Positions 39,974 through 61,787 of a DNA stretch of 64,000 bases are shown piece by piece. The stretch is from Escherichia coli (lineage in GTDB: Bacteria > Pseudomonadota > Gammaproteobacteria > Enterobacterales > Enterobacteriaceae): the NCBI RefSeq assembly GCF_044324875.1, contig NZ_CP172185.1; one strand, given 5' to 3'. The first letter of the stretch is position 1. Every line of letters begins with the position of its first letter. The position numbers and the translations under genes are program-made. The notes beneath the pieces were generated by a model that did not search any database, was not told the DNA's origin, and saw nothing but the letters and a program-made list of their open reading frames with translations.

Positions 39974-40067
39974 CTCAATGCCTGCTCATCAAAAAATTGT
40001 TCCAGAAGTGTAACAGATTGGGCGTCGATGCCCTAGATTTCTACCCGGCTTAACTACCCCCAATGGG

Positions 40068-41495
40068 CTAGCGCGACTGCTGATTATATTCATCATCGCG
40101 TTGATAAGCTTCATCATTCGGCTGCCCAGGAACCGACCGAAGTCGATACTCTTCATCCTGGCTCACCGCCTGTTCAGCCAAATCCGGGTTAATCTCGCGT
40201 TTAATTTCTACCCCTAAACCGCGAAACGCTTCTGCCTGCGCCAGCACATTTCCGCGACCTGAAGAGAGTTTTTTCATCGCCTGGCGATAGTTATCCTGCG
40301 CTTTGTCCAGACTTTGACCAATCGCGGACATATCATCAATAAACAGACGCATCTTGTCGTACAGCTTGCTGGCGCGATCGGCGATTTGCTGGGCGTTACG
40401 GCTTTGATGCTCATAACGCCAAAGGTTGGCGATAGTACGCAACGCCACCAGCAGCGTGGTGGGGCTAACCAGCATTATGTTGTTCTTTAATGCTTCGGTG
40501 ATCAGCTCCGGCTGGCGATCAAGCGCCAGTAAAAAAGCGGGTTCCACAGGGATAAACATCAGCACGTAATCCAGCGTTCGTAGCCCCGGCAGCTGTTGAT
40601 AGTCTTTGCGCCCAAGCAAGCGGATGTGATTACGTACCGAAGCAATATGCTCCTGCAATGCGCTTTCGCGTGTGTAGTCGTCTTCCGCGTTGAAGTAGCG
40701 TTCATAGGCGACCAGCGTCATTTTGGCATCGATCACCACATCTTTCCCCTGCGGTAGCCGCACGATGACATCCGGCTGCATCCGCGAGCGAGCGTCATTT
40801 TCGATGCTGACCTGGGTTTCGTATTCATACCCTTCACGCAGTCCGGAAGCCTCCAGCACCCGCGTCAGTACCACTTCGCCCCAGTTCCCCTGGGTTTTGT
40901 TATCGCCTTTCAGCGCGCGGGTCAGGTTGATCGCTTCCTGGGCCATTTGCGCGTTGAGCTGCTGGAGATTGCGAATTTCGTGGGTCAGGGTATGGCGTTC
41001 TTGTGCTTCTTTACCAAAGCTGTCCTGAACCTGACGGCGGAAACCGTCCAGTTGTTCACGTAGCGGCGACAACAGGCTGTTCAGACTCTGACGGTTTTGC
41101 TCATCAACCCGGCGATTGCTGTGCTCAAAAATACGGTTGGCGAGGTTTTCAAACTGCTCACTGAGGCGCTGCTCGCTGTTAATCATCTGGCGAATTTTAT
41201 CGTCAGCATGTTGCTGTGCGGCTTCCATCCGCGTGGTTACTTCACGCAGATCGGCCTCCAGAGAGGTGTTAATACTTTGCAGGCTGCGCACTTCGTTATT
41301 GAGTAACTCGCACTCAGCGCGCCAGTGCTCGCTTTGGGTAATTTGTTGTTTTGCCGCGCTTAACTCCGCGACCATCTCTTCACGTTCAGCTAATTGCTCG
41401 GCTTTTTGCTGCGCATGTTGATAACTGGCAAACAGCCAGCCAATTGCCACACCCACCAACGCAATAACTGCGTAAACCATGATTGAGAAATCCAC
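40068..41495 (-). CDS. rmuC: DNA recombination protein RmuC
   Basis: 475-aa ORF with N-terminal TM segment and long coiled-coil region. Confidence 0.93.
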   Translation of the reverse strand: MDFSIMVYAVIALVGVAIGWLFASYQHAQQKAEQLAEREEMVAELSAAKQQITQSEHWRAECELLNNEVRSLQSINTSLEADLREVTTRMEAAQQHADDKIRQMINSEQRLSEQFENLANRIFEHSNRRVDEQNRQSLNSLLSPLREQLDGFRRQVQDSFGKEAQERHTLTHEIRNLQQLNAQMAQEAINLTRALKGDNKTQGNWGEVVLTRVLEASGLREGYEYETQVSIENDARSRMQPDVIVRLPQGKDVVIDAKMTLVAYERYFNAEDDYTRESALQEHIASVRNHIRLLGRKDYQQLPGLRTLDYVLMFIPVEPAFLLALDRQPELITEALKNNIMLVSPTTLLVALRTIANLWRYEHQSRNAQQIADRASKLYDKMRLFIDDMSAIGQSLDKAQDNYRQAMKKLSSGRGNVLAQAEAFRGLGVEIKREINPDLAEQAVSQDEEYRLRSVPGQPNDEAYQRDDEYNQQSR

Positions 41496-42658: not shown

Positions 42659-43471
42659 ATGGCAACAACACAACAATCTGGATTTGCACCTGCTGCATCG
42701 CCTCTCGCTTCGACCATCGTTCAGACCCCGGACGACGCGATTGCGGCGGGCTTCACCTCTATCCCCTCACAAGGGGATAACATGCCTGCTTACCATGCCA
42801 GACCAAAGCAGAGCGATGGCCCACTGCCAGTGGTCATTGTAGTGCAGGAAATTTTTGGCGTGCATGAACATATCCGCGACATTTGTCGCCGTCTGGCGCT
42901 GGAGGGGTATCTGGCTATCGCACCTGAACTTTACTTCCGCGAAGGCGATCCGAATGATTTTGCCGATATCCCCACGTTACTTAGCGGTCTGGTAGCAAAA
43001 GTGCCTGACTCGCAGGTGCTGGCCGATCTCGATCATGTCGCCAGTTGGGCTTCCCGCAACGGCGGCGATGTACATCGTTTAATGATCACCGGATTCTGCT
43101 GGGGGGGACGTATCACCTGGCTGTATGCTGCGCATAACCCGCAACTGAAAGCGGCGGTGGCATGGTACGGCAAACTGACAGGCGATAAGTCGCTGAATTC
43201 ACCGAAACAACCTGTTGATATCGCAACCGATCTTAACGCGCCGGTTCTCGGCTTATATGGTGGTCAGGATAACAGCATTCCGCAGGAGAGCGTTGAAACC
43301 ATGCGCCAGGCGCTGCGGGCTGCTAATGCGAAAGCAGAGATTATCGTCTACCCGGATGCCGGGCATGCATTCAACGCCGATTATCGCCCGAGCTATCATG
43401 CCGAATCTGCGAAAGATGGCTGGCAGCGTATGCTGGAGTGGTTTAAGCAGTATGGTGGGAAGCGGAATTAG
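42659..43471 (+). CDS. ysgA: Putative dienelactone hydrolase family protein
   Basis: Start chosen at MATTQQSGFAPAAS (271 aa); alpha/beta hydrolase motifs (GFCWGG). Confidence 0.9.
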   Translation: MATTQQSGFAPAASPLASTIVQTPDDAIAAGFTSIPSQGDNMPAYHARPKQSDGPLPVVIVVQEIFGVHEHIRDICRRLALEGYLAIAPELYFREGDPNDFADIPTLLSGLVAKVPDSQVLADLDHVASWASRNGGDVHRLMITGFCWGGRITWLYAAHNPQLKAAVAWYGKLTGDKSLNSPKQPVDIATDLNAPVLGLYGGQDNSIPQESVETMRQALRAANAKAEIIVYPDAGHAFNADYRPSYHAESAKDGWQRMLEWFKQYGGKRN

Positions 43472-43862
43472 TTTCCTCTTAGTCTATATTTGAGATGGTG
43501 AGTGAACGAGTGCGTTTTGCTGCCATCTCTGTCCCCCAAAAAATAATCAGTATGAATTGATTGGAGAGCACGACTCCGCTATTTGACCTTAAGAAAGTCG
43601 GCAAGTAATAGTCATAAGTGAGTCTCTTCACTGGCAGACACCTTAGAGATTTACCATCAACTCCCATTCTCAAACAAACATTAATTATTATCAACACATT
43701 CACATTAATTATAAATTATCTCAGACCTTCCTGATAAAAAGATATTAAAGTGAAACATTTTGTTTTTCACATTTTAGTTCATCCCTTTTAGGCGTAAATA
43801 AAGGTAAAAAATAACAATACTATTTTTCTTTCACAAAAGAATTAACAAAAGGTTTTTCAAGG

Positions 43863-44996
43863 ATGAGTGATATTATTTACCTGAACATAACCGGAGAACA
43901 ACAAGGATGTATTTCCTCTCGTTGTGGAACGAGCGCATCAATAGGTAATCGCTGGCAGATTGGCCATGAAGATGAAATCTTCGCGTTCTCGCTCTCTAAT
44001 AGTATTACGAATACAGGCAAAGGGTCACAATTGCATGGCCTTAGTTTCTGTAAATTGATTGACAAAAGCTCCCCGTTACTTATTAACGCTATTAACAATA
44101 ACGAGCAGTTGTTCATGGAGTTTGACTTCTATCGGATCAATAGATTTGGTCGATGGGAGAAATATTACAACATTCAACTTCGCGGCGCGCTCTTATCAGC
44201 AATCAATCACCTGTTTACTGAGAACAATCTGGATACAGAAACCATCACTGTCAGTTATGAATATATACTCTCCAGGCATCTGATTGCTAATACTGAATTT
44301 AGTTATTTGGCATTTCCCGATAACTACAACCGTCTGTTTATACCACGGCCAAAAACTAAAGATGATAATGGCCTCAAAACACTCAATAGTAAAGCGGTTG
44401 GCAGACTGCTTGCTGCTGGCGGCATATACAATGGGAATATCGAAGGATTCAGGGAAACAGCAAACAAGTTGGGAGGAGATGCACCTGCTGGTTACGATCA
44501 AGTTATGGATAACAAAGGGTTACTCATCGCTGGTGCTTCAATAGTTGCTGGAGTTGTTCTGGGAAGAATGAGATTCCCTGATTTGGAATCACTTGAGCAT
44601 TTCGGAGCCAGAGGAGCAGTATCAGGAAGACCATTTAATCCCGACCTTGCCGGTGGTCCAATTGAAAACCTGACGATAGATGGCGTAACAATCAACAGGG
44701 AAGGTATCGCTATTGTTGAAAAGCATATCTCCAGATTTGATCATGATCCAGCTAATGATGTAATGATTTCAAGGCTAAAGAAAATAGCAAATAAAGAATT
44801 GCTTCCTGAAAAATACGATCTGAACTACTATACTCATGAATGTCGCGAGTATCAGCGTTATTGTAATTTAGGATGGGAAACAGGTGAACCGAAAGGTTTA
44901 GATGGATATGAATTATGGAATAATGTACATACTGCAACTCTAGAAGACTTTAAAATTAAAGATACTGACTTATTTCATCCGGATGCAAAAAAATGA
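43863..44996 (+). CDS. Hcp-domain protein with C-terminal extension (candidate Hcp-fused type VI secretion effector toxin)
   Basis: 377-aa ORF in AT-rich DNA. N-terminal ~155 aa follow the Hcp family pattern (YLNITGE...LHGLSFCKLIDKSSPLL...YYNIQL), alignable by eye with E. coli Hcp. The C-terminal ~220 aa have no family I can assign. Family call is by recall, not by search. Confidence 0.7.
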   Translation: MSDIIYLNITGEQQGCISSRCGTSASIGNRWQIGHEDEIFAFSLSNSITNTGKGSQLHGLSFCKLIDKSSPLLINAINNNEQLFMEFDFYRINRFGRWEKYYNIQLRGALLSAINHLFTENNLDTETITVSYEYILSRHLIANTEFSYLAFPDNYNRLFIPRPKTKDDNGLKTLNSKAVGRLLAAGGIYNGNIEGFRETANKLGGDAPAGYDQVMDNKGLLIAGASIVAGVVLGRMRFPDLESLEHFGARGAVSGRPFNPDLAGGPIENLTIDGVTINREGIAIVEKHISRFDHDPANDVMISRLKKIANKELLPEKYDLNYYTHECREYQRYCNLGWETGEPKGLDGYELWNNVHTATLEDFKIKDTDLFHPDAKK

Positions 44997-45250
44997 CGAT
45001 TACGATAGTTGAATTTAACGTGCTGAAAGTTATGGCTGAGAAAGATATTGACTGGAGCTGGATGGTGCTGGATCGTACTTTAGCTATACGAAATATTCCA
45101 GGATTTGGCAACGTAGCGAATATCGTAACAAAGCTGGTTAATCATGGGTTGGTTGATATCGTAAATGGTGAGGGCAACTCTAGACCACGCTACAGAGTTT
45201 CTCAATATGGATTGAATCTTATCAAAGAACAACAAGACAACCTCTTCTGA
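44993..45250 (+). CDS. Small hypothetical protein, candidate cognate immunity protein
   Basis: 85-aa ORF whose ATG overlaps the upstream stop (ATGA at 44993-44996); paralogue of the next ORF; conserved LDRTL-IR-IPGFGNV-NIV-KL--GLV block. Confidence 0.6.
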   Translation: MTITIVEFNVLKVMAEKDIDWSWMVLDRTLAIRNIPGFGNVANIVTKLVNHGLVDIVNGEGNSRPRYRVSQYGLNLIKEQQDNLF

Positions 45251-45309
45251 TCCAGCCATTACAGGAGCATGATTTACATTGTGATCTTTCAATAAGATAC
45301 TCATCAATT

Positions 45310-45570
45310 TTGGTACAGAATATCGTGATCACTAAAAATGAACTTAACGTGCTGAACGTTATGACTGAGAAAGATATAAACTGGAACTGGATGAATCTCG
45401 ATCGCACACTATCCATAAGGCAAATTCCAGGATTCGGGAATGTTGTTAACATTGTTAACAAATTAGCTAACGAAGGTTTGGTTATTATTGAGGATAGCGG
45501 GAATAAGTCTATGCCTCACTACCACGTTAGTGAAAAGGGATACAATCTCGTGCAACGTGAGAATAAATAA
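45310..45570 (+). CDS. Small hypothetical protein, paralogue of the preceding gene (candidate second or orphan immunity protein)
   Basis: 86-aa ORF with roughly 60% identity by eye to the 44993-45250 product, plus clear nucleotide similarity; track start is TTG at 45310, and an in-frame GTG at 45325 is an alternative start. Confidence 0.5.
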   Translation: MVQNIVITKNELNVLNVMTEKDINWNWMNLDRTLSIRQIPGFGNVVNIVNKLANEGLVIIEDSGNKSMPHYHVSEKGYNLVQRENK

Positions 45571-45676
45571 CGTAGCGTTGATTACTGAACGGAATCACTC
45601 AAAACTGTGTTTTGCGAAAAAAACGATTCGGTTATTTCTGCTCCTGAAGATCAGCTTCAATCTGGCACTCATGCAA

Positions 45677-45702
45677 AATGGCTTCCAGTGCTGGAAGCCA
45701 TT
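45677..45702. repeat. 26-bp near-perfect palindrome between the insertion and the metE 3' end
   Basis: aatggcttccag tg ctggaagccatt; possible bidirectional terminator. Confidence 0.5.
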
Positions 45703-45738
45703 ATCGTACTGCAATTTACAGTGACTCGTTAATATTCG

Positions 45739-48000
45739 TCATCCCCGACGCAAATTCTGCGCCGCCTGCACCATGTTCGCCAGTGCCGCGCGGGTTTCTG
45801 GCCAGCCGCGCGTTTTCAGGCCACAGTCCGGGTTGACCCACAGACGCTCTGCCGGAATGCGTTTTGCCGCTTTCTTCAGCAAGGCTTCAATCCATTCCAC
45901 GCTCGGTACGTTTGGCGAGTGAATGTCATAGACGCCAGGACCGATTTCATTTGGATAATCAAACTCTTCAAACGACTCCAGCAACTCCATGTCGGAACGC
46001 GAGGTTTCGATGGTGATGACGTCTGCGTCCAGCGCCGCAATCGAATCCATGATGTCGTTGAACTCGCAGTAACACATGTGAGTGTGGATTTGTGTGTCAT
46101 CTTTCGCCACGGCGGCGTTGATACGGAAAGCCTCCACGCCCCACTGGAGATAGGCATCCCAGTCGCCGCGACGCAGCGGTAAACCTTCGCGCAGTGCCGG
46201 TTCATCAATCTGGATGATGCCAATTCCAGCGGCTTCCAGGTCCGCCACTTCATCACGCAGCGCCAGCGCAATTTGTTTGGCGATGGTTTCACGGCTGACA
46301 TCTTCACGCGGGAACGACCAGCAGAGAATGGTCACCGGGCCGGTCAGCATCCCTTTCACCGGTTTGTCAGTCAGCGATTGCGCATACTTCGCCCACTCAA
46401 TGGTAATCGGTGCCGGGCGGCTAACGTCACCAATGACAATCGGCGGCTTCACGCAGCGGGAACCGTAGCTCTGTACCCAACCGTTTTGCGTAAAGACAAA
46501 ACCGTCGAGATGCTCGCCAAAGTATTCCACCATGTCATTACGCTCGGCCTCGCCATGCACCAGCACATCCAGACCTAAACGTTCCTGCTCAACAATGGCC
46601 TGCTTGATATGTTCCGCAATGCCCGTGCGGTAGTTGTTGGCGTCGAGATTACCCTTTTTGAAATCCAGACGCAGGGTACGAATTTCCGTGGTTTGCGGGA
46701 AGGAACCAATCGTGGTGGTCGGCCACGCGGGCAGTTTAAAACGCGCACGCTGGGCTTCAGCACGCACTTCATAGACATTCGCACGCTGACTGTCCTGAGC
46801 GGTGATCGCCGCCAGACGCTTTTCTACTGCCGGATTATGTACGCGGGTTGAGTGACGACGCGCCTGAATCGGAGCGCTCCACTCTGCCAGAGCAGCCGTG
46901 TCACCACTGTTCAGCGCATCGCGCAGCAGTGCCAGTTCATGACATTTTTGCAGGGCGAAGGCAAACCAGCTTTTCACTTCTGCATCAAGACGCGTTTCCA
47001 CGCTCAGGTCGATGGGGCTGTGCAGCAGTGAGCAGGAAGATGCCACCCACAAATCGCGTTTGCCGACAATGTCCTTAATTTGCGCATACTTCTCGGTAAG
47101 ATCGGCGCGCCAGACGTTACGACCATTGATCAGACCCGCAGACAGCAGCCAGTCAGAAGGCAGACGCTTGTGCAGTTCAGCAACGTCATCTTTACCATGT
47201 ACAAGATCGACATGCAGACCCTGAACAGGCAGCGCAGTAATCGTGTCGAGATTTGGCGTTACGCCTTCAAAATAGGTGGTCAGCAGCAGTTTCACCTGTC
47301 CCTGGAGCGCGTCGTAAGCGGGTTTGTATGCGTCCAGCCACGCCTGCGGTAGTTCCAGTACCAGCGCTGGTTCGTCGATCTGTACCCACTCAATACCGCG
47401 TTTTGCCAGTTCTGCCAGCACTTGCTGATAAATCGGAAGAATGTCGTTCAGCAGGCTCAGGCGATCAAACTGTTCACCTTTCACTTTACCCAGCCACAGG
47501 TAGGTAACCGGCCCCAGCAGCACAGGTTTCACCTTGTGGCCCAGCGCCAGCGCCTCGTCCACTTCCTCCAGCAGCTGCGTCCAGGTCAGTTTGAACTGTT
47601 GGCCTTTAACGAACTCCGGCACCATGTAGTGATAGTTGGTGTTAAACCATTTGGTCATTTCCGCTGCCGCCGCAGGTTCACCAGTCGGCGCACGTCCACG
47701 ACCAATACGGAACAGGGTGTCGATATCTACCGAACCATCTTTGTTCTGATGACGTGGCGGAACATTACCCAGCAGCAGACTGGTGGTCAGTACATGATCG
47801 TACCAGGCAAAATCGCCCACCGGCAGCAGGTCGATACCCGCCTGCTTTTGTTGATCCCAGTGACGGGCACGTAATTCACGCCCAACCGCCAGCAGTTCTT
47901 CACGCGTGGAGTTCCCCGCCCAATAACTTTCTTGCGCTTTTTTCAGCTCGCGACGCAGGCCAACGCGAGGGAAACCGAGGGTGTGATTCAATATTGTCAT
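45739..48000 (-). CDS. metE: Cobalamin-independent methionine synthase
   Basis: 753-aa [32 protein letters not shown]... Confidence 0.97.
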
Positions 48001-48235
48001 TTTTCTTCCTCTAATTATATGTAAATCCTATGGATTTTGAATTTAGGGAAGGCGGCAAGTTTATTCATCCCCGGGAGCTTACTGAAGTAAGTGACCGGGG
48101 TGAAGAAACGCAGCCAACGCACCATAAATTTAAAAGACGAAGGATTTTAGCCGTCCAGATGTTTACACATCCATAATTGGCGGTTACTGTATATTCCTCA
48201 AGCGCAAATTATTCATGCCGAAGTGAAGGACTTTC
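48001..48235. promoter_or_regulatory. Divergent metE/metR control region (expected MetR and MetJ sites)
   Basis: Intergenic region between divergent metE and metR; met-box-like agacg/gtccagatgtttacacatcc sequences; sites not mapped precisely. Confidence 0.4.
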
Positions 48236-49189
48236 ATGATCGAAGTAAAACATCTGAAAACGCTACAAGCGTTGCGGAACTGCGGCTCGCTCGCAGCCGC
48301 TGCGGCGACGTTGCATCAGACGCAATCCGCCCTGTCTCACCAGTTTAGCGATCTGGAACAACGCCTTGGCTTCCGGCTATTTGTGCGTAAGAGCCAGCCG
48401 CTTCGCTTTACACCGCAGGGAGAAATCCTGTTGCAACTGGCAAATCAGGTGCTGCCGCAAATCAGCCAGGCACTGCAAGCCTGCAATGAACCGCAGCAGA
48501 CGCGTCTGCGCATTGCCATCGAGTGCCATAGCTGTATTCAGTGGCTGACGCCCGCGTTAGAAAATTTCCATAAGAACTGGCCGCAGGTCGAGATGGACTT
48601 TAAATCGGGCGTGACGTTTGACCCGCAGCCTGCGTTGCAACAGGGCGAGCTGGATCTGGTGATGACGTCAGATATTCTGCCGCGCAGTGGCCTGCATTAT
48701 TCGCCGATGTTCGATTATGAAGTGCGTCTGGTGTTGGCACCTGACCATCCGCTGGCGGCGAAAACGCGTATTACACCGGAAGATCTCGCCAGCGAGACGC
48801 TGTTGATTTATCCGGTGCAGCGTAGTCGACTGGATGTCTGGCGGCATTTTCTTCAGCCAGCAGGCGTCAGCCCGTCACTGAAAAGCGTCGATAACACCTT
48901 ATTGTTGATTCAGATGGTTGCCGCGCGGATGGGTATTGCCGCACTACCGCATTGGGTGGTGGAGAGTTTTGAACGCCAGGGTCTGGTGGTGACCAAAACC
49001 CTGGGCGAAGGCTTGTGGAGCCGACTGTACGCCGCCGTGCGCGATGGCGAGCAGCGTCAGCCGATTACAGAAGCGTTTATTCGCTCAGCGCGCAATCACG
49101 CCTGCGATCATCTGCCGTTTGTGAAGAGCGCGGAGCGACCCACTTACGATGCACCCACAGTGAGGCCAGGATCACCAGCGCGCCTGTAA
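48236..49189 (+). CDS. metR: LysR-family transcriptional activator MetR
   Basis: 317-aa ORF with N-terminal HTH ([24 protein letters not shown]). Confidence 0.96.
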
Positions 49190-49976
49190 TAAACGTTGGC
49201 CAGTGCGGCTGTTGGTGCCAGATAGCCAGGTTTACCAGCAGCCCTGCCGGAACGTGCATATTATTCATAATGCCCAGCGTTCCGGCGTCCACCTGCGTCG
49301 CGCCGTAGTTCCACATAAAGTAGCCAATCCCGGAAGCCACCACGCCAAGAAACACCAGAATGCCCCATTGCAACGTGGTTTGCGGCATTTTCTGCGCATT
49401 TCCCAGCAAGAACCATGCAATCACCGCCACCAGGAACGCGCCAAGATAGAACCACGCAAAGGCGTTATGCTGCGGCATCGGGCGAGTTTCCATCAGACGT
49501 TTGTAACCCACCATGCCGATGGCAAAAGTGATATTGGAGAGCTGCACCAGCAGCAGGCCAGTCCAGAAGTGGTCGGTGACCTGATCATAGCGAATAATCC
49601 CGGCACCAATCACCGCCAACAAGGCGCTAAAAGCATAGCCCCAGCGCAGACGGCGCTGACTCATGATGTCATAAATCAACGTGATGTAGAGCGGCGTCAG
49701 TACGGTGAACAGCAGCAGCTCGGAGACCGTCAGGTAGAGATAGGCGCGGAAACTCAGCATATACATCACGCCGAGCTGCATCGCGCCTACCAGCATATAC
49801 AGGCCGACCGTTTTCAGGCTATTGCCACGGGTACGCAGAAACGGCAGAAAAACCAGTGCCGCCAGGCCAACGCGCACCAGCACTGCAAAATAGCTATCGA
49901 CGTGCCCCGCAAGGTACTCGCCATAAAAGCTAAAGGAGAAGGCCCACAGAATCGTGGTGATGATAAGTAGCGCCAC
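49077..49976 (-). CDS. yigM: EamA/DMT-family transporter YigM (biotin transporter BioP)
   Basis: 299-aa polytopic membrane ORF; its 3' end overlaps the metR 3' end. Confidence 0.9.
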
Positions 49977-50051
49977 AATGGAAAACTCTTTGATTAACGA
50001 GTATCCATTGTAGCGAAGTATCAGGTTGACAACTGACCAAATAAAGAACGA

Positions 50052-50852
50052 TTACGATAAATAGAGCTTACGCAGATAATGCGGCACTGCGTCCTCGGCG
50101 TTAGTACCAATCACTTCCAGTTCCGGATGCAGATCTTTCAGACGCTGGTGCGCACTGCCCATAATGCAGCCTTTCCCCGCCATCGACAGCATTTCGGCGT
50201 CGTTCATCCCGTCACCAAACGCAATACAATCTTGCAGGCTGTAGCCCAGTTTCTTCGCCACCGCTTCCAGCGCATGACCTTTCGACACGCCGCCCGCCAT
50301 CACTTCCAGACAGGTTAAGGTAGAGAAACTGACGTTGACGCGATCGCCCCAGCGAGCGTTGATCGCCTGCTCCAGCGGCAGAAGTTGTTCATGGGAATCG
50401 CAGGTGAAGAACACTTTGCTGACGCCTTCCGGCTCCAGTAATCCCGGCTCATACAGCGCATATTTGAACACCGCTTCTTTAAAAAAGCGCATCTCTTCCG
50501 GGCGATGGCGATTCATAAACCATTCGTCGTCGCGATAAACGTTAGTAATGATGTCCGGATTGTCGTTGACTACGCCAAACAGATCGCTGGCAATGTCGCG
50601 ATCCAGGTTATGAGCAAAAATCAGATTGCCATCCAGATCGTGAACGCGCGCGCCATTGGAGGTAATCATGTAAGACTTAATCTCCAGATTATCGCGAATT
50701 TGCCCCACATCAACGTGGTGACGACCGGTCGCAAACACAAAGTTGATGCCGCGCGCGGTGAGCAGCTTCAGAGTTTCTTTGGCGTAAGGGGATAACGTAT
50801 GGTCGGGAGAAAGTAACGTGCCATCTAAATCAGACGCAACAACCTGGTACAT
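50052..50852 (-). CDS. yigL: HAD-family sugar phosphatase YigL
   Basis: Start chosen at MYQVVASDLDGTLL (HAD motif I DxDGT), 266 aa; the track ORF extends upstream into pldB. Confidence 0.92.
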   Translation of the reverse strand: MYQVVASDLDGTLLSPDHTLSPYAKETLKLLTARGINFVFATGRHHVDVGQIRDNLEIKSYMITSNGARVHDLDGNLIFAHNLDRDIASDLFGVVNDNPDIITNVYRDDEWFMNRHRPEEMRFFKEAVFKYALYEPGLLEPEGVSKVFFTCDSHEQLLPLEQAINARWGDRVNVSFSTLTCLEVMAGGVSKGHALEAVAKKLGYSLQDCIAFGDGMNDAEMLSMAGKGCIMGSAHQRLKDLHPELEVIGTNAEDAVPHYLRKLYLS

Positions 50853-50859
50853 AAGAAAT

Positions 50860-51882
50860 TTAAACCTCTGTAGAGCGGTTTCCGCTGGGTGAGTTATGCC
50901 TGTTGAAAAAATCAACGATGGCGTGGAGCGCGACTGAGCGCATTGCGTCCTTTTCAAAAAGGATCTCATGGTACGCACCTTTAATTACCAACGGCCGTCC
51001 TCCTTCGACAGGATGGCCCGCGGCAGTGCGGAGTTCACAAAAACGGTCGTGCATGCGGTTATCCACCACGCGTTCCTCTTCAGCTTGTAAGAGAAGCGTT
51101 GGCGTGGTGTCATCACCCGCACCGGCTAACACCTGTTCGCCAGCCAGAATACTTTCGCGTACCCAATGGTAGGTCGGCCCACCGACGCGAATCGTTGGGT
51201 CATCAGCATAGAAGCGTAAGTTACGTCGATATCGCTGTCTGCTGTGGGTCAGTACGTTGATAGCAAACGGCAACGCGCGCCAGCGCCCGGTGCCTATTGC
51301 ATAGCCATCACGGAAACGTGGATGCGCTTCGGCCCAGTTGAGGATCTGCCGTGCCATAAATGACGGCATACGAATCACGATCCCAAACATTGGCGCAGTT
51401 AGCGCAATGGCGTCACATACACCTGGATGGCGTTGCAGAAATAATGTGGAGATCGCACCGCCCATTGAATGTGCCAGTATATAGCGTTTACGCCACGGAC
51501 CGGGCTGAACCTCCTGTTGCCAGAATGCCGCCAGATCATCAACATAATCATTAAAGCGATTAACATGCCCGAGATGCGGATCGGCTAACAGGCGACCGGA
51601 ACGTCCCTGCCCGCGATGGTCGATGATTAAGACATCAAACCCCAAATGGAACAGGTCATAGGCCAGTTCCGCATATTTTACGTAGCTCTCAATACGCCCC
51701 GGGCAGATGACTACCACCCGGTCATGGTGCTGTGCGCGAAAACGGACAAAGCGCACCGGAATGTCATCCACACCAGTAAATTCTGCTTCATCACGCTGAC
51801 GCCAGAAATCAGTCAGCGGTCCCATGGTAAAAGCAGCAAACGCGTTTTCTCTTGTTTCCCAGTCTTTTTGCTGCTGAAACAT
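50860..51882 (-). CDS. pldB: Lysophospholipase L2
   Basis: 340-aa ORF with alpha/beta hydrolase motif AHSMGG. Confidence 0.95.
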   Translation of the reverse strand: MFQQQKDWETRENAFAAFTMGPLTDFWRQRDEAEFTGVDDIPVRFVRFRAQHHDRVVVICPGRIESYVKYAELAYDLFHLGFDVLIIDHRGQGRSGRLLADPHLGHVNRFNDYVDDLAAFWQQEVQPGPWRKRYILAHSMGGAISTLFLQRHPGVCDAIALTAPMFGIVIRMPSFMARQILNWAEAHPRFRDGYAIGTGRWRALPFAINVLTHSRQRYRRNLRFYADDPTIRVGGPTYHWVRESILAGEQVLAGAGDDTTPTLLLQAEEERVVDNRMHDRFCELRTAAGHPVEGGRPLVIKGAYHEILFEKDAMRSVALHAIVDFFNRHNSPSGNRSTEV

Positions 51883-51992
51883 CGGGTAATCTGCCTCTTA
51901 AACCACGTAAAATCGTTTTTTTAAGCGTGCCTGACACAACGCTGCGACAGTAGCGTATTGTGGCACAAAAATAGACACACCGGGAGTTCATC

Positions 51993-52613
51993 ATGACCTT
52001 AGAATGGTGGTTTGCCTACCTGCTGACATCGATCATTTTAAGCCTGTCGCCAGGCTCTGGCGCAATCAACACCATGACCACCTCGCTCAACCACGGTTAT
52101 CGCGGCGCGGTGGCGTCTATTGCTGGGCTTCAGACCGGACTGGCGATTCATATTGTGCTGGTTGGCGTGGGGTTGGGGACGCTATTTTCCCGCTCAGTGA
52201 TTGCGTTTGAAGTGTTGAAGTGGGCAGGCGCAGCTTACTTGATTTGGCTGGGAATACAGCAATGGCGCGCCGCTGGTGCAATTGACCTTAAATCGCTAGC
52301 CTCTACTCAATCGCGCCGACATTTGTTCCAGCGCGCAGTGTTTGTGAATCTTACCAATCCCAAAAGTATTGTGTTTCTGGCAGCGCTATTTCCGCAATTC
52401 ATCATGCCGCAGCAACCACAACTGATGCAGTATATCGTGCTCGGCGTCACCACTATTGTGGTCGATATTATTGTGATGATCGGTTACGCCACCCTTGCTC
52501 AACGGATTGCTCTATGGATTAAAGGACCAAAGCAGATGAAGGCGCTGAATAAGATTTTCGGCTCGTTGTTTATGCTGGTGGGAGCGCTGTTAGCATCGGC
52601 GAGGCATGCGTGA
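51993..52613 (+). CDS. rhtB: LysE-family homoserine/homoserine lactone exporter
   Basis: 206-aa membrane [30 protein letters not shown]... Confidence 0.93.
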
Positions 52614-52621
52614 AAAATAAT

Positions 52622-52651
52622 GTCGGATGCGGCGTAAACGCCTTATCCGAC
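52622..52651. repeat. REP element
   Basis: gtcggatgcggcgtaaacgccttatccgac. Confidence 0.7.
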
Positions 52652-52674
52652 TTACTCTGATGACGCGTCTGGCA

Positions 52675-53295
52675 TCAACGCGAAATAATCAAATGAATGC
52701 CAAATCCGGCAAATAACGCCCCGGCAAAACCATCAATCCACTTCGCCAGACGCTGATAACCACGGCGCATTTGCGGCAAAGCAAACAGGCTGGCAACGAC
52801 GGTAAACCACGCCAGTGTTTCGATAATAATCAACGCGAAAATGCCCCAGCGCTCAGTGGTGCCGACGTTATCGCCGACAAACAGCGAGAATACCGAACCA
52901 AAGTAGATAATCGCTTTCGGATTGGCGAGATTGGTCAGTAAGCCTTTCAGGAAACTGCGCCCGCTTTTTGCCAGCTCAACCTGTGGTGCAGGCGCAGAAA
53001 CCGCCTCTTTTTTCAGTGCACCGCGTAGCATCTGGTAACCCATCCAGCAGAGATACAGGCCTCCGCCCACCATAATCAGCGTATGCAGCCAGGCCATTTT
53101 TTCGATAATCAAATGCAGGCCAAGCAACGCAATCCCAGCCCAAACCATTACGCCGCAGGTAATGCCCAGCACGCCCATCATCGCTTCTTTACGGGAACGA
53201 CTGACAGCGGTCTGAGAGACAAAAAAGAAATCGGGACCGGGGCTCATAAGCGCCACAATGTGCACCATGGCGACGGTGAGGAATAACATCAACAT
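52675..53295 (-). CDS. rhtC: LysE-family threonine exporter
   Basis: 206-aa membrane ORF MLMLFLTVAMVHIVALMSPGPDFFFV... Confidence 0.93.
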   Translation of the reverse strand: MLMLFLTVAMVHIVALMSPGPDFFFVSQTAVSRSRKEAMMGVLGITCGVMVWAGIALLGLHLIIEKMAWLHTLIMVGGGLYLCWMGYQMLRGALKKEAVSAPAPQVELAKSGRSFLKGLLTNLANPKAIIYFGSVFSLFVGDNVGTTERWGIFALIIIETLAWFTVVASLFALPQMRRGYQRLAKWIDGFAGALFAGFGIHLIISR

Positions 53296-53358
53296 ACATT
53301 AGACTCGCGGGGGAAACGTTTACGGAGTCTTCATCCTGGCACTTTTTTATCCTGCTGA

Positions 53359-55188
53359 CTACTCTTCGTCATCGCCATCAACATGCGCACGAATCAGCGC
53401 CATGAACGGTTTGCCAAAGCGTTCCAGCTTGCGCATCCCAACGCCGTTAACGCTGAGCATTTCGCTGGCAGTGATCGGCATCTGTTCAGCCATCTCAATC
53501 AAGGTCGCGTCGTTAAACACCACGTACGGCGGGACATTGCTTTCATCGGCAATCGATTTACGCAGTTTGCGTAATTTGGCGAACAGTTTGCGATCGTAGT
53601 TGCCGCCGAAGGATTTCTGCATCGCTTTCGGTTTGAGCGCCACGATACGCGGCACGGCAAGTTGCAAAGAGGATTCGCTGCGCAGCACCGGACGCGCAGC
53701 CTCTGTCAGTTGTAGGGCAGAATGCTGGGCAATATTTTGCGTCACCAGGCCGAGGTGAATCAGCTGGCGGATCACGCTCACCCAATGTTCATGGCTTTTA
53801 TCACGGCCCATGCCATAGACTTTCAGTTTGTCATGACCATAGTCGCGGATACGCTGGTTATTAGCGCCACGAATCACTTCCACCACATAACCCATCCCAA
53901 ACCGCTGATTCACACGACCAATGGTGGAAAGGGCAATCTGAGCATCGGTTGAACCATCGTATTGTTTCGGCGGATCGAGGCAGATATCGCAGTTCCCGCA
54001 CGGCTCCTGCCGCCCTTCGCCAAAGTAGTTCAGCAGCACCAGACGACGGCAAGTTTGCGCTTCGGCAAACGCGCCCATCGCATTGAGTTTATGACGTTCG
54101 ATATCCTGTAACTGCCCCTGCGGTTTCTCTTCCAGACAACGACGCAGCCACGCCATATCCGCCGGATCGTAAAACAGCATCGCTTCCGCGGGCAGGCCAT
54201 CACGCCCGGCGCGTCCGGTTTCCTGATAATAGGATTCAATGTTGCGCGGAATATCAAAATGCACCACGAAGCGAACGTTTGGTTTATTGATGCCCATGCC
54301 GAACGCCACCGTCGCCACCACAATTTGCAGGTCATCGCGCTGGAATTTCTCCTGCACATCAGCGCGAACATTATTTTCCAGCCCGGCATGATAGGCCGCC
54401 GCGCTAATTCCCTTGCTTTGCAGGCGCGCAGCGGTGTCTTCTACTTTCGCACGACTATTACAGTAAATAATCCCCGACTTACCGCGTTGTTCCTGTACAT
54501 AACGCATCAACTGATCGAGCGGTTTGAATTTCTCCATCAGCATGTAGCGAATATTCGGACGGTCAAAACTGCTGATTTGAATCAGCGGATCGTTCAGCCC
54601 CAGCAGGCGCACGATATCCTGGCGCGTGGTGTCATCGGCTGTGGCAGTCAGCGCCATAAACGGCAGCGTCGGAAAACGCTGACGCAGCTGACCGAGGGCA
54701 GCGTATTCCGGGCGGAAATCGTGACCCCATTGGGAGATACAGTGCGCTTCATCAACGGCTAATAACACCGGATTCCAGTGCGCCAGATGCTCAAGAAAGT
54801 TATCCAGCATCAGACGTTCCGGCGCGATATAAAGCAGGCGGATTTGCCCGGTGCGACAGCCTGTCATAACTTCAAGTTGCTGCTCGCGGGTTTGCGTCGA
54901 GTTAAGGCACGCCGCCGCCACGCCGTTGGCTTGCAGTTGATCCACCTGATCTTTCATCAACGAAATCAGCGGTGAAACAACCACGGTAAGGCCGTTTAGC
55001 AATAAGGCAGGGATTTGATAGCAAAGGGATTTTCCGCCACCAGTGGGCATGACGACGAGGCAATCGCGGCCGGAAAGCACAGTGTCGATAATTTCTTCCT
55101 GGCCGGGGCGAAACTGTTGGTAGCCAAAGGTTTCTTGTAAAACCTGTTTAGCTCCGGACTCCAGATTCAACACTTCCGCCTGCGCCAC
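53359..55188 (-). CDS. recQ: ATP-dependent DNA helicase RecQ
   Basis: ORF with helicase motifs ([15 protein letters not shown]), zinc-binding and HRDC regions; start taken at the GTG giving MAQAEVLN. Confidence 0.96.
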
Positions 55189-55204
55189 ATTCACCCCGAT
55201 TGCC

Positions 55205-55237
55205 TGAAATAAAAACAGGCGCTATTTTCAGCGCCTG
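55205..55237 (-). terminator. Intrinsic terminator downstream of pldA
   Basis: caggcgc...gcgcctg hairpin followed by a TTTTTATTT run on the minus strand. Confidence 0.6.
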
Positions 55238-55320
55238 CGCGAGAAACTGCAATGCTTTTAGTCTCTGAGAGGGTAATCCTGGATACTGGATTCCAGATTT
55301 GCCAACCACTCAACCGTTCA

Positions 55321-56190
55321 TCAAAACAAGTCGTTTAGCATAACCCCTACACCAACGCGGGTCTGGTTGAAGTTATAGTCGATGAGCGATTCGCCGTAAC
55401 CGCTGTAAACCTGAGTATAAAGGCGCACATGTTTGGTGATCGGGTAACTTAAGCCTAACTCCGCGCCGCCGTAGCCCGTGTTCCAGTTGTACTGTCCTTT
55501 CGCACTCAACACCGCATCACCGAGGTGATAGCCAATTTTAAGCTGGTAGTAACCCATATATTTGGTGATATCCGGGTTATCGTCAGTATTACCCACCACA
55601 TACCACGGCTTCACTTCTACCAGCCAGTTACCGTTTTCTGCCATCAGGCGAGTATAAAGGCGGTTCCAGCTGCGGGAGGTCGGGTCTGAACGCCCGTTAG
55701 AGTCGTGGTTATACCCCATCTCCACATCGCGCAGCGTCCAACCTGCAAAACGGTAATCGGTGGCAAAACCGAGGAACAATTGCGGTTCGTAGTTGGTTTC
55801 ACGAAACGGTGAAGACTCTTCGCTATTGGACAGTTGCCACCAGGATTTTTGCGTATAAGACGCACCCAATACCGAGTTCGGGCCTAAAATCCCACGCCAC
55901 AGCGGAAATGCCAGGCTCAACTGAAACTTTACTTCATCCTTACGCGCATTTTCCGCCCAGTCGTAACTGGCAATCGCTTCTTTATTCAGATCGCTGGTTT
56001 GGGTGTAGATGAGGTAGTTGGTGTCATAAGGATAGAGCGTGAACGGATTGTCATGCTCCTGCAGCATATTGGCGATAATACTGCCACGCACCGCTGGCGC
56101 GTCATGCACCTCTTTCACCGTTGCCTCTTGTGCATATACTGCCATAGGCAACATAAACACCGGCAACAACCAGCCCTGCAGAGTCCGCAT
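55321..56190 (-). CDS. pldA: Outer membrane phospholipase A
   Basis: 289-aa ORF with signal peptide; recognised as OMPLA. Confidence 0.96.
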   Translation of the reverse strand: MRTLQGWLLPVFMLPMAVYAQEATVKEVHDAPAVRGSIIANMLQEHDNPFTLYPYDTNYLIYTQTSDLNKEAIASYDWAENARKDEVKFQLSLAFPLWRGILGPNSVLGASYTQKSWWQLSNSEESSPFRETNYEPQLFLGFATDYRFAGWTLRDVEMGYNHDSNGRSDPTSRSWNRLYTRLMAENGNWLVEVKPWYVVGNTDDNPDITKYMGYYQLKIGYHLGDAVLSAKGQYNWNTGYGGAELGLSYPITKHVRLYTQVYSGYGESLIDYNFNQTRVGVGVMLNDLF

Positions 56191-56354
56191 CGGTCGTGTT
56201 CTCCGTAACGAATTATTGATAAGGTGAATATTTTTCTGCGGGCTATTTTACATACTTAACTCCATAGCCGTTAGTTATCCCTTCCTAAAGTAGAAACCAA
56301 CAACAAAGAAGCATAAAATCAACATTTCATTAACCAATGAAGTGTAAGGATGAT

Positions 56355-56822
56355 ATGTCTGCCGTACTGACCGCTGAACAAGCCCTGAAATTAGTGGGTG
56401 AGATGTTTGTTTATCACATGCCATTTAACCGCGCATTGGGGATGGAACTGGAGCGTTACGAAAAAGAGTTCGCACAGCTGGCCTTTAAAAATCAGCCAAT
56501 GATGGTGGGTAACTGGGCGCAAAGCATTTTGCACGGCGGAGTCATTGCGTCGGCGCTGGATGTCGCCGCCGGTCTGGTGTGCGTGGGAAGTACCTTAACC
56601 CGCCACGAAACCATCAGTGAAGATGAACTACGCCAGCGGCTATCGCGGATGGGGACCATTGATCTTCGCGTTGATTATCTGCGCCCAGGCAGGGGCGAGC
56701 GTTTTACTGCTACCAGTAGTCTGTTGCGTGCAGGCAATAAAGTCGCCGTCGCCCGCGTTGAATTACACAATGAAGAACAGCTTTATATTGCCAGCGCTAC
56801 AGCCACCTATATGGTAGGTTGA
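56355..56822 (+). CDS. yigI: Hotdog-fold acyl-CoA thioesterase YigI
   Basis: Start chosen at [18 protein letters not shown] (155 aa). Confidence 0.9.
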
Positions 56823-56873
56823 TAACGTAAAAGCAGGTAAACTGCTGTTACCAATTAAAAATGAGTATTCCCG

Positions 56874-57764
56874 ATGGATGCAAAACAAACGCGGCAGGGC
56901 GTATTACTCGCTCTTGCCGCTTATTTTATTTGGGGTATTGCGCCAGCGTACTTCAAGCTGATTTACTACGTGCCCGCCGATGAGATCCTGACGCATCGCG
57001 TGATCTGGTCGTTTTTCTTTATGGTGGTGCTGATGAGCATTTGCCGCCAGTGGTCCTATTTAAAAACGCTGATTCAGACGCCACAGAAAATTTTTATGCT
57101 GGCAGTCTCTGCCGTGCTGATTGGTGGCAACTGGCTACTGTTTATCTGGGCGGTGAACAATCACCATATGCTGGAAGCGAGCCTTGGTTACTTTATTAAC
57201 CCGCTGGTGAACATTGTGCTGGGGATGATTTTCCTCGGCGAGCGATTCCGCCGGATGCAATGGCTGGCGGTGATTCTGGCGATATGTGGCGTGTTGGTTC
57301 AGTTGTGGACTTTTGGTTCACTGCCGATTATCGCGCTGGGGCTGGCGTTTAGTTTTGCCTTCTACGGCCTGGTACGCAAGAAGATTGCTGTTGAAGCGCA
57401 AACCGGCATGTTAATCGAAACTATGTGGTTGCTGCCCGTGGCGGCGATTTACCTGTTTGCTATTGCCGACAGCGCAACCAGCCATATGGGGCAAAACCCG
57501 ATGTCGCTGAATTTACTGCTGATCGCCGCCGGTATTGTCACTACCGTACCGCTGTTGTGTTTTACTGCGGCTGCGACACGCCTGCGTCTCTCAACGTTAG
57601 GCTTTTTTCAGTACATTGGCCCGACGCTGATGTTCCTGCTGGCTGTGACGTTTTATGGCGAAAAACCGGGTGCCGATAAGATGGTGACCTTCGCCTTTAT
57701 TTGGGTGGCGCTGGCAATTTTTGTGATGGATGCGATTTATACGCAGCGTAGAACGTCCAAATAA
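56874..57764 (+). CDS. rarD: EamA/DMT-family transporter RarD
   Basis: 296-aa polytopic membrane ORF. Confidence 0.93.
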   Translation: MDAKQTRQGVLLALAAYFIWGIAPAYFKLIYYVPADEILTHRVIWSFFFMVVLMSICRQWSYLKTLIQTPQKIFMLAVSAVLIGGNWLLFIWAVNNHHMLEASLGYFINPLVNIVLGMIFLGERFRRMQWLAVILAICGVLVQLWTFGSLPIIALGLAFSFAFYGLVRKKIAVEAQTGMLIETMWLLPVAAIYLFAIADSATSHMGQNPMSLNLLLIAAGIVTTVPLLCFTAAATRLRLSTLGFFQYIGPTLMFLLAVTFYGEKPGADKMVTFAFIWVALAIFVMDAIYTQRRTSK

Positions 57765-57858
57765 AAAATAAATATATTCTGAAAAAATATGCCGACTCTT
57801 GCATGAGAGTGGGCATATTGCCATGCTGACAGGAGACTCACACAAGGATGTAAAATTT

Positions 57859-58239
57859 ATGTTGCGTATATTTATCCCAACATCTAACGGTAAGATTTCC
57901 AGACGCCGTTATATATTTTCATTTATTTTAATAAATTTCATTTTTGCCTTTCTTATTATCTTTTTTAACGATGGGGACGCAGGTTTTCTTGTTATTGTCT
58001 CTACCATCGCACTCCATTATCTCGTCATCAACATAAATTGCCAACGACTCCGTGATAGTGGTTTCATATATATAAAAACTTATGTTTTTGGTACATTAGC
58101 AGTATATATCATCTCTATCATCACAATGATAGCCGAACATTTTGATTGTTCAGGCAATGGTTCGATGATTTTTTTGATTTGTTATTTTTCCACTTTCAGT
58201 ATGCTAATGCTTGCACCTACTGATTCATCAAAACAATAG
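57859..58239 (+). CDS. yigG: Inner membrane protein YigG
   Basis: Start chosen at [18 protein letters not shown]; AT-rich; three predicted TM segments. Confidence 0.75.
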
Positions 58240-58252
58240 TTATGGAGTATTT

Positions 58253-58633
58253 ATGAGTAAGGAGTATATGAACGATGGTTCATTAAGTGAAAAATGGAAA
58301 TACCGATTTAACTTTTATGATCAACATGGCTTTCCTGGATTCTGGGGGGCAACACCAGAATATAAAGCAGCATTTAAAACATTAAAAGTAAGACAACGAT
58401 TAACTATTCAAATGAATTTCATTGCTTTCTTCTGTTCCTGGATCTATTTATTTGTTCTGGGATTATGGAAAAAAGCAATTATAGTTCTATTACTTGGCAT
58501 TCTATCTCTATTTGTTGGTGCACTAATTGGCGTTAACATTCTGGGAATTGCCGTAGCAGCCTATGTTGCTGTTAACACGAACAAATGGTTTTATGAGAAA
58601 GAGGTAAAAGGGTTAAATACCTGGAGCCTTTGA
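58253..58633 (+). CDS. yigF: Inner membrane protein YigF (DUF2628)
   Basis: Start chosen at MSKEYMNDGSLSEKWKYRF; AT-rich; two TM segments. Confidence 0.75.
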   Translation: MSKEYMNDGSLSEKWKYRFNFYDQHGFPGFWGATPEYKAAFKTLKVRQRLTIQMNFIAFFCSWIYLFVLGLWKKAIIVLLLGILSLFVGALIGVNILGIAVAAYVAVNTNKWFYEKEVKGLNTWSL

Positions 58634-58640
58634 ATAACAG

Positions 58641-58678
58641 GTGGCTTAGCCAGGCTAAGCCACCGCTCTCGTTTTTTA
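58641..58678 (+). terminator. Intrinsic terminator after yigF
   Basis: ggtggcttagcc / ggctaagccacc hairpin followed by gctctcgtttttt. Confidence 0.6.
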
Positions 58679-59626
58679 CAACCAGTTCTTCCGCTTAAAG
58701 TACAAATACGGTGCCAGGCCCGCGAGGATCATAAAGATAATCGCGCCAGGGTAGCCGAAACTCCACTTCAGTTCCGGCATAAACTCAAAGTTCATCCCGT
58801 AGCTGGAAGCAACCAGTGTTGGCGGCAGGAACACGACGGATACCACCGAGAAGATTTTGATGATGCGGTTCTGCTCGATATTGATAAAGCCCATCGCCGC
58901 CTGCATCAGGAAGTTCACCTTCTGGAACAGAGATTCGTTATGCGGCAGCAGGGATTCGATATCTCGCAGGATTTCACGCGCCTGCTCCAGTTGACCACCC
59001 GGTAAACGCGCCTTGCGTACCAGGAAGTTGAGCGCGCGCTGGGTATCCATCAGACACAGGCGAACTTTCCAGCCGATATCTTCCAGTTCCGCCAGCGTGG
59101 AGAGCGCCTCGTCGTACTCATCGCCCTGATGCCCTTCCATAATTACCCGGCTCAACTGCTCCAGGTCGCTGTAGATATTTTCAATTTCATCTGCCAACTG
59201 TTCGATTTTGGTTTCGAACAGATCCAGCAGCAGCTCGTAGGCGTTACCGTCCACCATTGACTGGCTACGGGCACGCATACGATACAGACGGAATGCAGGC
59301 AGTTCACGCTCACGCAGAGTAAACAGACGACCATCACGGATGGTAAATGCCACAGTGGAGTTACCGGCGTGATCTTCCGCATCTTCAAAGAAGAAGAAGG
59401 AGTGAATATGCAGGCCGTCATCGTCTTCAAAGAAACGTGCCGATGCTTCGATGTCTTCCAGTTCCGGGCGGGTTGCCAGGCTCTGGCCAAGTTCAGATTG
59501 TACGCGCAGTCGCTCGTCGTCGTCCGGTTCGACAAGATCAATCCATACTGCATTTACAAGGGGTTGTGACTCTTCGACTTCCAGCCGGGTCAGTCGGTTA
59601 TTTTCCAGTTGAAATGCGCTCAGCAT
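58676..59626 (-). CDS. corA: Magnesium/cobalt transporter CorA
   Basis: Start chosen at [17 protein letters not shown] (316 aa); GMN motif (YGMNF) and C-terminal TM segments. Confidence 0.96.
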
Positions 59627-59995: not shown

Positions 59996-60760
<765 letters not shown>

Positions 60761-60842
60761 GCATTGTACACTCGAGGAGGCCAGACAAACTGGGACTGGC
60801 TACACAGCTGGAAAATCATCAGATAAATGAAGGGAAACAAAA

Positions 60843-61745: not shown

Positions 61746-61756
61746 GGTGCTGATGC

Positions 61757-61787
61757 GGGATGCGGTGTGGCGCACCGCATCCCGCAA
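61757..61787. repeat. REP-like palindrome / bidirectional terminator
   Basis: gcgggatgcggtg tggcg caccgcatcccgc between the convergent DUF62 gene and uvrD. Confidence 0.6.

Follow-up and report, generated by a model that had tools for sequence, protein, structure and literature searches.

An orphan Hcp-ET effector–immunity island between ysgA and metE of Escherichia coli, probably served by a type VI secretion system encoded elsewhere

We analysed a 64,000-nucleotide stretch of an Escherichia coli genome (contig NZ_CP172185.1, assembly GCF_044324875.1; hereafter the window), in which one small locus encodes a specialised Hcp protein (Hcp-ET), i.e., a type VI secretion system (T6SS) tube protein with a C-terminal toxin extension, followed by two small open reading frames (ORFs). 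According to our analysis, this locus is a horizontally acquired orphan Hcp-ET effector–immunity island, and its toxin is probably delivered in trans by the T6SS2 system where that system is intact. The island and the firing apparatus decay separately: depending on the lineage, one and the same 2.3-kb island is a likely weapon, a shield only, or a stranded toxin. Its features are as follows.

43463–45742, no strand assigned: the whole island, 2,280 bp
43463–43862, + strand: AT-rich upstream non-coding region, presumed promoter region
43863–44996, + strand: hcp-ET gene, an intact ORF of 377 amino acids (aa), specialised Hcp effector
43863–44303, + strand: Hcp (TssD) tube-protein domain, aa 1–147 (TIGR03344, PF05638)
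44304–44567, + strand: conserved helical linker or pre-toxin region, aa 148–235, containing NSKAVGRLLAAGGIYNGNIEGF and the hydrophobic stretch GLLIAGASIVAGVVLG
44568–44993, + strand: predicted C-terminal polymorphic toxin domain, aa 236–377 (142 aa), with invariant H288, F292, D319, H325, E329 and W352 and nearly invariant H356
44993–45250, + strand: putative immunity gene 1, 85 aa, with an ATGA overlap with the toxin stop codon
45310–45570, + strand: second putative immunity gene, a paralog of the first, 86 aa from TTG at 45310 (the RefSeq start is GTG at 45325, giving 81 aa)

The borders of the island were determined by comparison with K-12. Since homology to K-12 ends at 43462 and restarts at 45743, a 2,280-bp segment stands in place of the 55-bp terminator hairpin that K-12 has between ysgA and metE. 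Enteroaggregative E. coli (EAEC) 042 has an empty ysgA/metE site with identical break points, and the GC content of the island is about 0.40–0.45, compared to about 0.52 in the flanks. All three genes of the island (the 377-aa ORF, the 85-aa ORF and its 86-aa paralog) lie on the + strand, and the interval 43863–45570, singled out by an earlier note made from the letters of the window, coincides with this three-gene unit. Megablast detected the island in 848 of 5426 complete E. coli genomes (~16%), among them the type strain ATCC 11775 and other well-studied strains such as UTI89, Nissle 1917 and NC101.

The first part of the Hcp-ET protein is an unambiguous Hcp domain. It matched TIGR03344 with 124.9 bits (cut-off 58.9) and PF05638 with 53.9 bits (cut-off 23.5; 3e-14), and solved Hcp structures align to aa 2–145 (PDB 6a2v, E=8.5e-15). 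The 230-aa extension that follows agrees with the definition of a specialised Hcp, which calls for an extension of >60 aa beyond a core of ~160 aa (Howard et al. 2021). The only difference between the window protein and WP_001521777.1, which strains 7/2 and KE55 encode, is K376T. The Hcp domain is 77% identical to that of K-12 YhhZ (first 156 aa) and 68% identical to that of the Hcp-ET encoded between aroP and pdhR. The earlier note had proposed a comparison with the Hcp proteins encoded in T6SS clusters, and this gave 38–41% identity to the Hcp of 159/160 aa encoded last in the main operon of T6SS2 and ~30% to the one of 172 aa encoded beside vgrG. The canonical Hcp2A and Hcp2B of E. coli T6SS2, at aspV, share the Hcp fold with the window domain, the operon-end protein being the nearest; however, they lack a C-terminal extension, and their genes are part of the cluster.

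The identity to YhhZ is 73% over aa 1–230 and then stops abruptly, which gives a three-part layout of Hcp domain (1–147), linker (148–235) and variable toxin (236–377). Many columns of the linker are invariant over aa 173–213, and the linker also precedes the toxin domain in DUF8093 proteins and other non-Hcp carriers. In the AlphaFold2 (AF2) model of the full-length protein, which was used for the rough domain layout only (mean predicted local distance difference test 60, predicted template modelling score 0.37), helices were placed at 176–232 with low confidence. The hydrophobic helix of the linker could be an inner-membrane entry device that YhhZ has as well. Full-length Hcp-fused homologs from Salmonella and Citrobacter have 74–77% identity over aa 151–377 of the query.

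An exhaustive HMMER search with the toxin domain yielded, at E<=1e-3, 462 cluster representatives. Of the 150 of these that were listed, nearly all have the domain at the extreme C-terminus, in proteins of 105 to 5214 aa. The carriers include Hcp, the second Hcp family TssD (PF17642), PAAR, Rhs, SpvB/TcB-like proteins and S-type pyocins (Pyocin_S), and also PT-TG, EspC-like, DUF8093 and LysM/He_PIG proteins. Such a combination of many unrelated carriers and C-terminal placement is the signature of a polymorphic toxin, and we predict that aa 236–377 are a domain of this kind. The window ORF keeps all of the invariant residues.

The AF2 model of the toxin domain is confident and all-alpha; it contains no strand that is at least three residues long. 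A structure search with this model gave no structural match, and a Pfam scan of the domain gave no match even at E<=10. Names such as “HNH endonuclease” and “colicin” are given to homologs in some sources, and a nuclease identity of the HNH/colicin type was considered and rejected because there is no Pfam match, no likeness to the C-terminus of YhhZ and an all-alpha model. The beta-beta-alpha-metal arrangement of HNH or His-Me finger nucleases has no counterpart in the domain, there being no PF01844 match at E<=10. Likewise, no Pfam match was found in the toxin domain that corresponds to the DUF2235/Tle1, pyocin S3, colicin DNase or papain-like peptidase clans of Hcp-ET. We tentatively regard the C-terminal 142 aa, at a little short of an even chance, as an unnamed all-alpha toxin fold, probably with a cytoplasmic target, paired with a winged-helix immunity protein of ~85 aa and borne by many carriers (Hcp, PAAR, Rhs, Tc-like, S-pyocin and type VII secretion-type PT-TG/EspC-like proteins) as well as phage-like contigs. 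If this is true, E. coli strains such as 7/2 would wield a weapon of uncharacterised biochemistry. No paper describing the toxin domain or its winged-helix immunity protein was found in the literature, and both appear to be uncharacterised. The domain is widespread, its model is confident and no structural relative of it is known, which makes it a tractable target in the search for a new antibacterial activity.

The toxin domain starts with M236, a residue conserved at >=90%; the codons of G234, R235 and M236 lie in 44553–44570. In the window M236 is preceded by GGA AGA, the latter a rare arginine codon, and in Pantoea, Citrobacter and Cronobacter the ATG follows GGA AGA, GGA AGG or GGG ACA. 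From these features, M236 may be an internal translation start. On metagenome contigs, a 354-aa toxin-domain protein and an 81-aa immunity homolog are encoded alongside a phage capsid gene and a gene for an LPD3 domain protein, which suggests that the toxin–immunity pair is carried by phage. In Pantoea agglomerans, a non-Hcp carrier of the toxin lies in what looks like a mixed island of T6SS effectors and defence genes, together with a gene for a Hcp of 161 aa, two genes with Tlde1 domains, an McrBC system and a pair of the luxI/luxR type.

A homolog of the small ORFs, of 81–95 aa, lies directly 3' of the toxin domain in all six contexts examined, often overlapping its stop codon: after a DUF8093 carrier in Cronobacter, a Hcp in Citrobacter and a carrier of unknown N-terminus in Pantoea, and also at two Rhs loci and in a phage-like contig. 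The identities across these contexts are 27–70%, the two Rhs cases being marginal (E=0.003–0.005). In the window, immunity gene 1 is translationally coupled to hcp-ET by way of the ATGA overlap. We infer that the small ORFs, whose products lack a signal peptide, encode cytoplasmic immunity proteins, and this would in turn imply a cytoplasmic toxin target. Immunity 2 is 59% identical to immunity 1, and its closest relative among the proteins compared, the Cronobacter-type immunity protein, is likewise 59% identical; it is probably an extra or orphan immunity protein against a variant toxin. In Citrobacter europaeus, the yhhY-ggt slot has four small ORFs upstream of its Hcp-ET gene, two of them immunity homologs (67–70% identical to the window immunity protein) and one of the Imm35 family, and this group looks like an orphan-immunity array.

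The small ORFs have a weak but consistent similarity to the winged helices of MarR, PadR, HxlR and RIO2, which accounts for the “MarR family” name in databases. The PDB profile matches range from 1e-3 to 1 and are confined to the region of the recognition helix and the wing. For the window protein, Pfam gave only EarA at E=0.16 (12.2 bits; cut-off 22), and the member scan gave nothing at E<=0.1; the best Pfam match among the homologs was PadR at 6.1e-05, in 2 of 34.

We propose that, by virtue of its Hcp domain, the protein would be taken into the Hcp tube of a T6SS whose genes lie elsewhere, most likely T6SS2 at the aspV tRNA locus, which is repressed by H-NS. Fired into neighbouring bacteria, the toxin would then act in their cytoplasm, while immunity 1 would shield the producer and its kin, and the divergent immunity 2 may guard against a related toxin variant. 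Two operons make up T6SS2, vipA2...hcp2A and the divergent hcp2B-vgrG2, and the system is repressed by H-NS and induced by serum (PMC5874247). For the related orphan Hcp-ET1, a review and a preprint describe delivery in trans by T6SS2, not by T6SS1 (PMC6730261; bioRxiv 10.1101/2024.03.05.583533).

Any such apparatus must lie outside the window. The earlier note had reported no T6SS genes in these 64 kb besides Hcp, and this was borne out by tblastn across the whole window with all proteins of the T6SS2 cluster of strain 7/2 and of the T6SS1 (Sci-1) cluster of EAEC 042, together with VgrG, DUF2169 and PAAR-like proteins of UTI89. The sole match to these queries, among which T6SS3-type components were not included, was the Hcp domain itself (43863–44294); with the T6SS1 and T6SS2 sets, the core genes tssA–tssM and clpV, vgrG and PAAR genes were not found at the locus. 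This absence is statistically unremarkable, because a cluster of ~30 kb in a genome of ~5 Mb overlaps a random 64-kb window only ~2% of the time. The orphan position is also ordinary for the family: a DNA search with the Hcp-domain sequence revealed that E. coli has at least three slots for an orphan Hcp-ET (ysgA-metE, yhhY-ggt and aroP-pdhR), and their Hcp domains are 61–77% identical to one another, far closer than to the cluster-encoded Hcp proteins. An orphan location is the rule for Hcp-ET, as is already known for the family; it requires no special explanation, and a false lead is thereby avoided.

The co-occurrence of the island with T6SS2 was assessed by set arithmetic on megablast counts obtained with chimeric queries against the 5426 complete genomes. 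As a proxy for a working system we used T6SS2 tssC, probed with two variants that are ~72% identical. The island segment was present in 848 genomes and tssC (either variant) in 2809, with a union of 2977; hence tssC was present in 680 of the 848 island genomes (80%), compared to 2129 of the 4578 island-less ones (46.5%), an odds ratio of ~4.7 that is not corrected for phylogeny. With allele-specific 40-mers, tssC accompanied 487 of 561 alleles in which W98 of the Hcp domain is intact (87%) and 191 of 282 alleles in which it is a stop codon (W98*; 68%). By population frequency, about 0.8–0.87 of genomes like that of the window have T6SS2 tssC. T6SS1 was tried as an alternative apparatus and set aside: the Sci-1 tssC probe of 042 added 36 T6SS-positive genomes, none of them island-bearing, and so rescued 0 of the 168 tssC-negative island genomes, although one probe could overlook divergent T6SS1 clusters and no T6SS3 probe was included.

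The earlier note had listed three alternatives for this locus, namely a T6SS encoded elsewhere, a remnant island, or immunity only, and each of them is realised in sequenced E. coli. Strain 7/2 has a complete T6SS2 (tssA–M, clpV, two hcp, vgrG) at aspV, ~1 Mb from an intact hcp-ET; its island has 2 mismatches only to that of the window, whereas the flanks differ by 1–2.6%. In UTI89, the Hcp domain is interrupted by W98* (TGG to TAG) and both immunity genes are intact. About 257–282 genomes have the W98* allele, among them ATCC 11775, NC101 and clone D i14; the count is given as a range because 818 genomes were found with a 53-mer, compared to 843 with both 40-mer allele probes taken together, a difference of 25. 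Because UTI89, NC101 and ATCC 11775 carry this allele, immunity-only carriage may shape who kills whom in gut and urinary communities. In KE55 the gene is intact, and T6SS2 is cut by an ISEc31-associated deletion that removed vgrG, hcp, tssB, tssC, tssE, tssF, tssG and part of tagH.

Several points weigh against delivery by T6SS2. The complete genome most similar to the window over 25 kb, KE55, is the very one with the broken T6SS2, and 74 of the 561 intact-allele genomes have no detectable T6SS2 tssC. The co-occurrence is not corrected for phylogeny, and the presence of tssC is no proof of a working system. The Hcp domain is at most 38–41% identical to any cluster-encoded Hcp, so that compatibility with T6SS2 is a proposal. 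The equation of the published Hcp-ET1 with the YhhZ type is not confirmed from sequence. Secretion, toxicity and neutralisation are deduced for the window allele from its sequence, and delivery in the source strain depends on a T6SS2 outside the window.

In an unlikely but serious alternative, the island of the window is an immunity cassette or a stranded remnant: the toxin gene would be intact, there would be no working T6SS, and the immunity genes would be kept by selection as a protection from T6SS2-positive relatives. KE55, with the same protein bar K376T and a T6SS2 devoid of the genes listed above, is an example of precisely this state, and 168 of the 848 island genomes contain neither T6SS1 nor T6SS2 tssC. 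The intact immunity genes that UTI89-type genomes keep beside a W98* toxin gene fit this alternative as well, as does the retention of the paralogous yhhZ-yrhA module in K-12, which is described as T6SS-less (PMC6730261). However, the window ORF is of full length with every invariant toxin residue in place, and the intact allele and T6SS2 tssC occur together in 87% of genomes. Furthermore, the right flank of the window is 99.7–99.8% identical to EAEC 042, which carries a T6SS1 cluster and is called T6SS2-positive in a review (PMC6730261). We therefore continue to favour delivery in trans by T6SS2 as the probable function of the island.

Two other explanations dispense with secretion of the toxin or with the immunity role, and both are in our opinion very improbable. 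The island might be a T6SS-independent addiction unit resembling a toxin–antitoxin system, in which a free 142-aa toxin is made from the internal start M236 and restrained by the small proteins. The conservation of M236 (>=90%), the purine-rich Gly-Arg or Gly-Thr codons before it (with rare arginine codons in the window, Pantoea and Citrobacter) and the 142-aa product predicted by gene callers in many assemblies (P0098, 171 member sequences) can all be cited for it. Nevertheless, homologs in Rhs and phage contexts have no M236, the spacing between the Shine–Dalgarno-like motif and the ATG is very short, and the toxin always forms the C-terminal end of proteins with secretion or delivery domains, a placement that marks exported polymorphic toxins and not toxin–antitoxin systems. 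It is equally hard to credit that the two small ORFs are MarR-type regulators of the island instead of immunity proteins, even though homologs are named “MarR family transcriptional regulator” in some sources and the MarR, PadR and HxlR winged-helix matches are consistent, if weak. With 85 aa and a single winged-helix domain, the ORFs are shorter than the matched MarR/PadR chains (98–207 aa), and the window protein has no match to the MarR or PadR model above threshold. They trail the toxin domain under any carrier, with start–stop overlap, and occur in duplicated or orphan arrays in Citrobacter, which is the behaviour of immunity genes.

One of the closest relatives known is YhhZ-YrhA, encoded between yhhY and ggt in K-12. 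It is likewise an orphan, its Hcp domain and linker are similar to those of the window over aa 1–230, as described above, and its immunity gene overlaps the stop codon of the effector gene. In the literature, the HNH type of YhhZ is linked to Hcp-ET1 of STEC004 and O104:H4. However, the toxins differ: a weak HNH match (PF01844, E=0.0051) is seen in YhhZ, which is assigned to the His-Me finger nucleases, and the toxin of the window is without HNH match and predicted to be all-alpha. YrhA (138 aa) is unrelated to the window immunity proteins, and the chromosomal slot is also different; the yhhY-ggt slot of Citrobacter europaeus nonetheless carries the toxin type of the window. The yhhZ-yrhA module is still present in K-12, which is said to lack any T6SS (PMC6730261).

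The protein encoded at aroP-pdhR in the uropathogenic strain UTI89 (UTI89_C0121) shares with that of the window the orphan position, repeated immunity genes, the LAFPxxYNxLFIP junction and a Hcp domain with the 68% identity given above (62% over aa 1–188). It differs in its length of 593 aa, in its four “bacteriocin immunity protein” genes and in a linker that diverges after ~aa 170. This 593-aa Hcp fusion with four immunity genes matches the description of Hcp-ET3-4, for which pyocin S3 and colicin DNase domains were reported (PMC6730261). T6EC4/T6IC4 of Citrobacter koseri is similar in that a Hcp domain is followed by a C-terminal domain without Pfam assignment in an orphan or auxiliary operon, the effector being toxic in the cytoplasm and neutralised by the product of the downstream gene (PMC11148199). 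T6EC4 is, however, reported to resemble Tox-REase-5 nucleases like TseT in structure (Mol Syst Biol 2024; PMC11148199), and the model of the window toxin is all-alpha and has no structural neighbour; from this comparison, made by description only, it is unlikely that the window toxin is the published T6EC4.

The region upstream of hcp-ET is variable. Across 43300–45900, 15 promoter-like sites were found compared to 7.1 +/- 2.9 expected, which is weak evidence. In strains WP4-S17-ESBL-08 and WP2-W18-ESBL-10, copies of the insertion sequences IS1 and IS3 are inserted between ysgA and hcp-ET and the ORF is intact; several of the listed genomes with such insertions otherwise match the island over its full length at 100.0% identity. 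The transposase gene of the inserted IS1 ends ~100 bp upstream of the hcp-ET start, a position from which the insertion could alter the expression of the gene. A 13-kb metabolic block that the window lacks lies ahead of the hcp-ET pseudogene in UTI89; it has genes for a cysteine hydrolase, FdrA, carbamate kinase, cytosine permease, transketolase, a phosphotransferase system IIBC component and 6-phospho-3-hexuloisomerase. A 16-kb metE..ysgA region is among the genomic regions listed in the published comparison of BEN2908.

The rest of the window is chromosomal background. Annotation transfer from the collinear KE55 showed housekeeping genes alone from ~17.5 to 64 kb, in the order hemG, trkH, fadBA, ubiD, tatABCD, ubiEJB, rmuC, udp, ysgA, the island, metE, metR, recQ, pldA, corA and uvrD, which is the reverse of the K-12 orientation. 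The first 17.5 kb presumably contain glnALG, hemN and polA with their neighbours, followed by an rrn operon, as we assume from the ORF sizes and the gene order of K-12.

KE55 is the best complete-genome match over 25 kb, with an identity ceiling of 98.6–98.7%. The right flank (45743–64000) has the near-identity to EAEC 042 noted above, although the site is empty in that strain; the left flank is 98.25% identical to EAEC 042, and the island is of the type found in 7/2 and KE55. This contrast of identities between the flanks and the island points to a recombination mosaic with a breakpoint at the right edge of the island. Within rmuC, the kilobase 40000–41000 has 67–69 mismatches per kb to EAEC 042 and KE55, compared to 18 per kb to strain 7/2, and the neighbouring kilobases differ by 2–15 per kb; judged by these counts, it looks like a local recombination patch.

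An Rfam scan of 43000–48400 gave no match inside the island; its sole match was an element outside, a repeat of ~120 bp at 48026–48144, between metE and metR, that resembles the enterobacterial repetitive intergenic consensus and forms an imperfect palindrome (CCCCGGGAGCTTAC ... GTAAGTGACCGGGG). Rfam V_AS5 matches this repeat at 28.7 bits, below the threshold, and the corresponding intergenic region of strain 7/2 is without the extra ~118 bp. Between yigE and uvrD, a gene for an S-adenosylmethionine (SAM) hydroxide adenosyltransferase of the SAM hydrolase/halogenase family (PF01887, PF20257; 60843–61745, + strand) is an accessory gene that is present in UTI89 and absent from KE55. Between rarD and corA, a low-GC patch (57799–58633, + strand) contains two small ORFs of 146 and 140 aa, the second with DUF2628; we take the latter to resemble yigF of K-12. 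At this position, KE55 and UTI89 have a different pair, encoding a YPO3983-family protein and a DUF943 protein, and the patch appears to be a further slot with exchangeable content, the second in the window.

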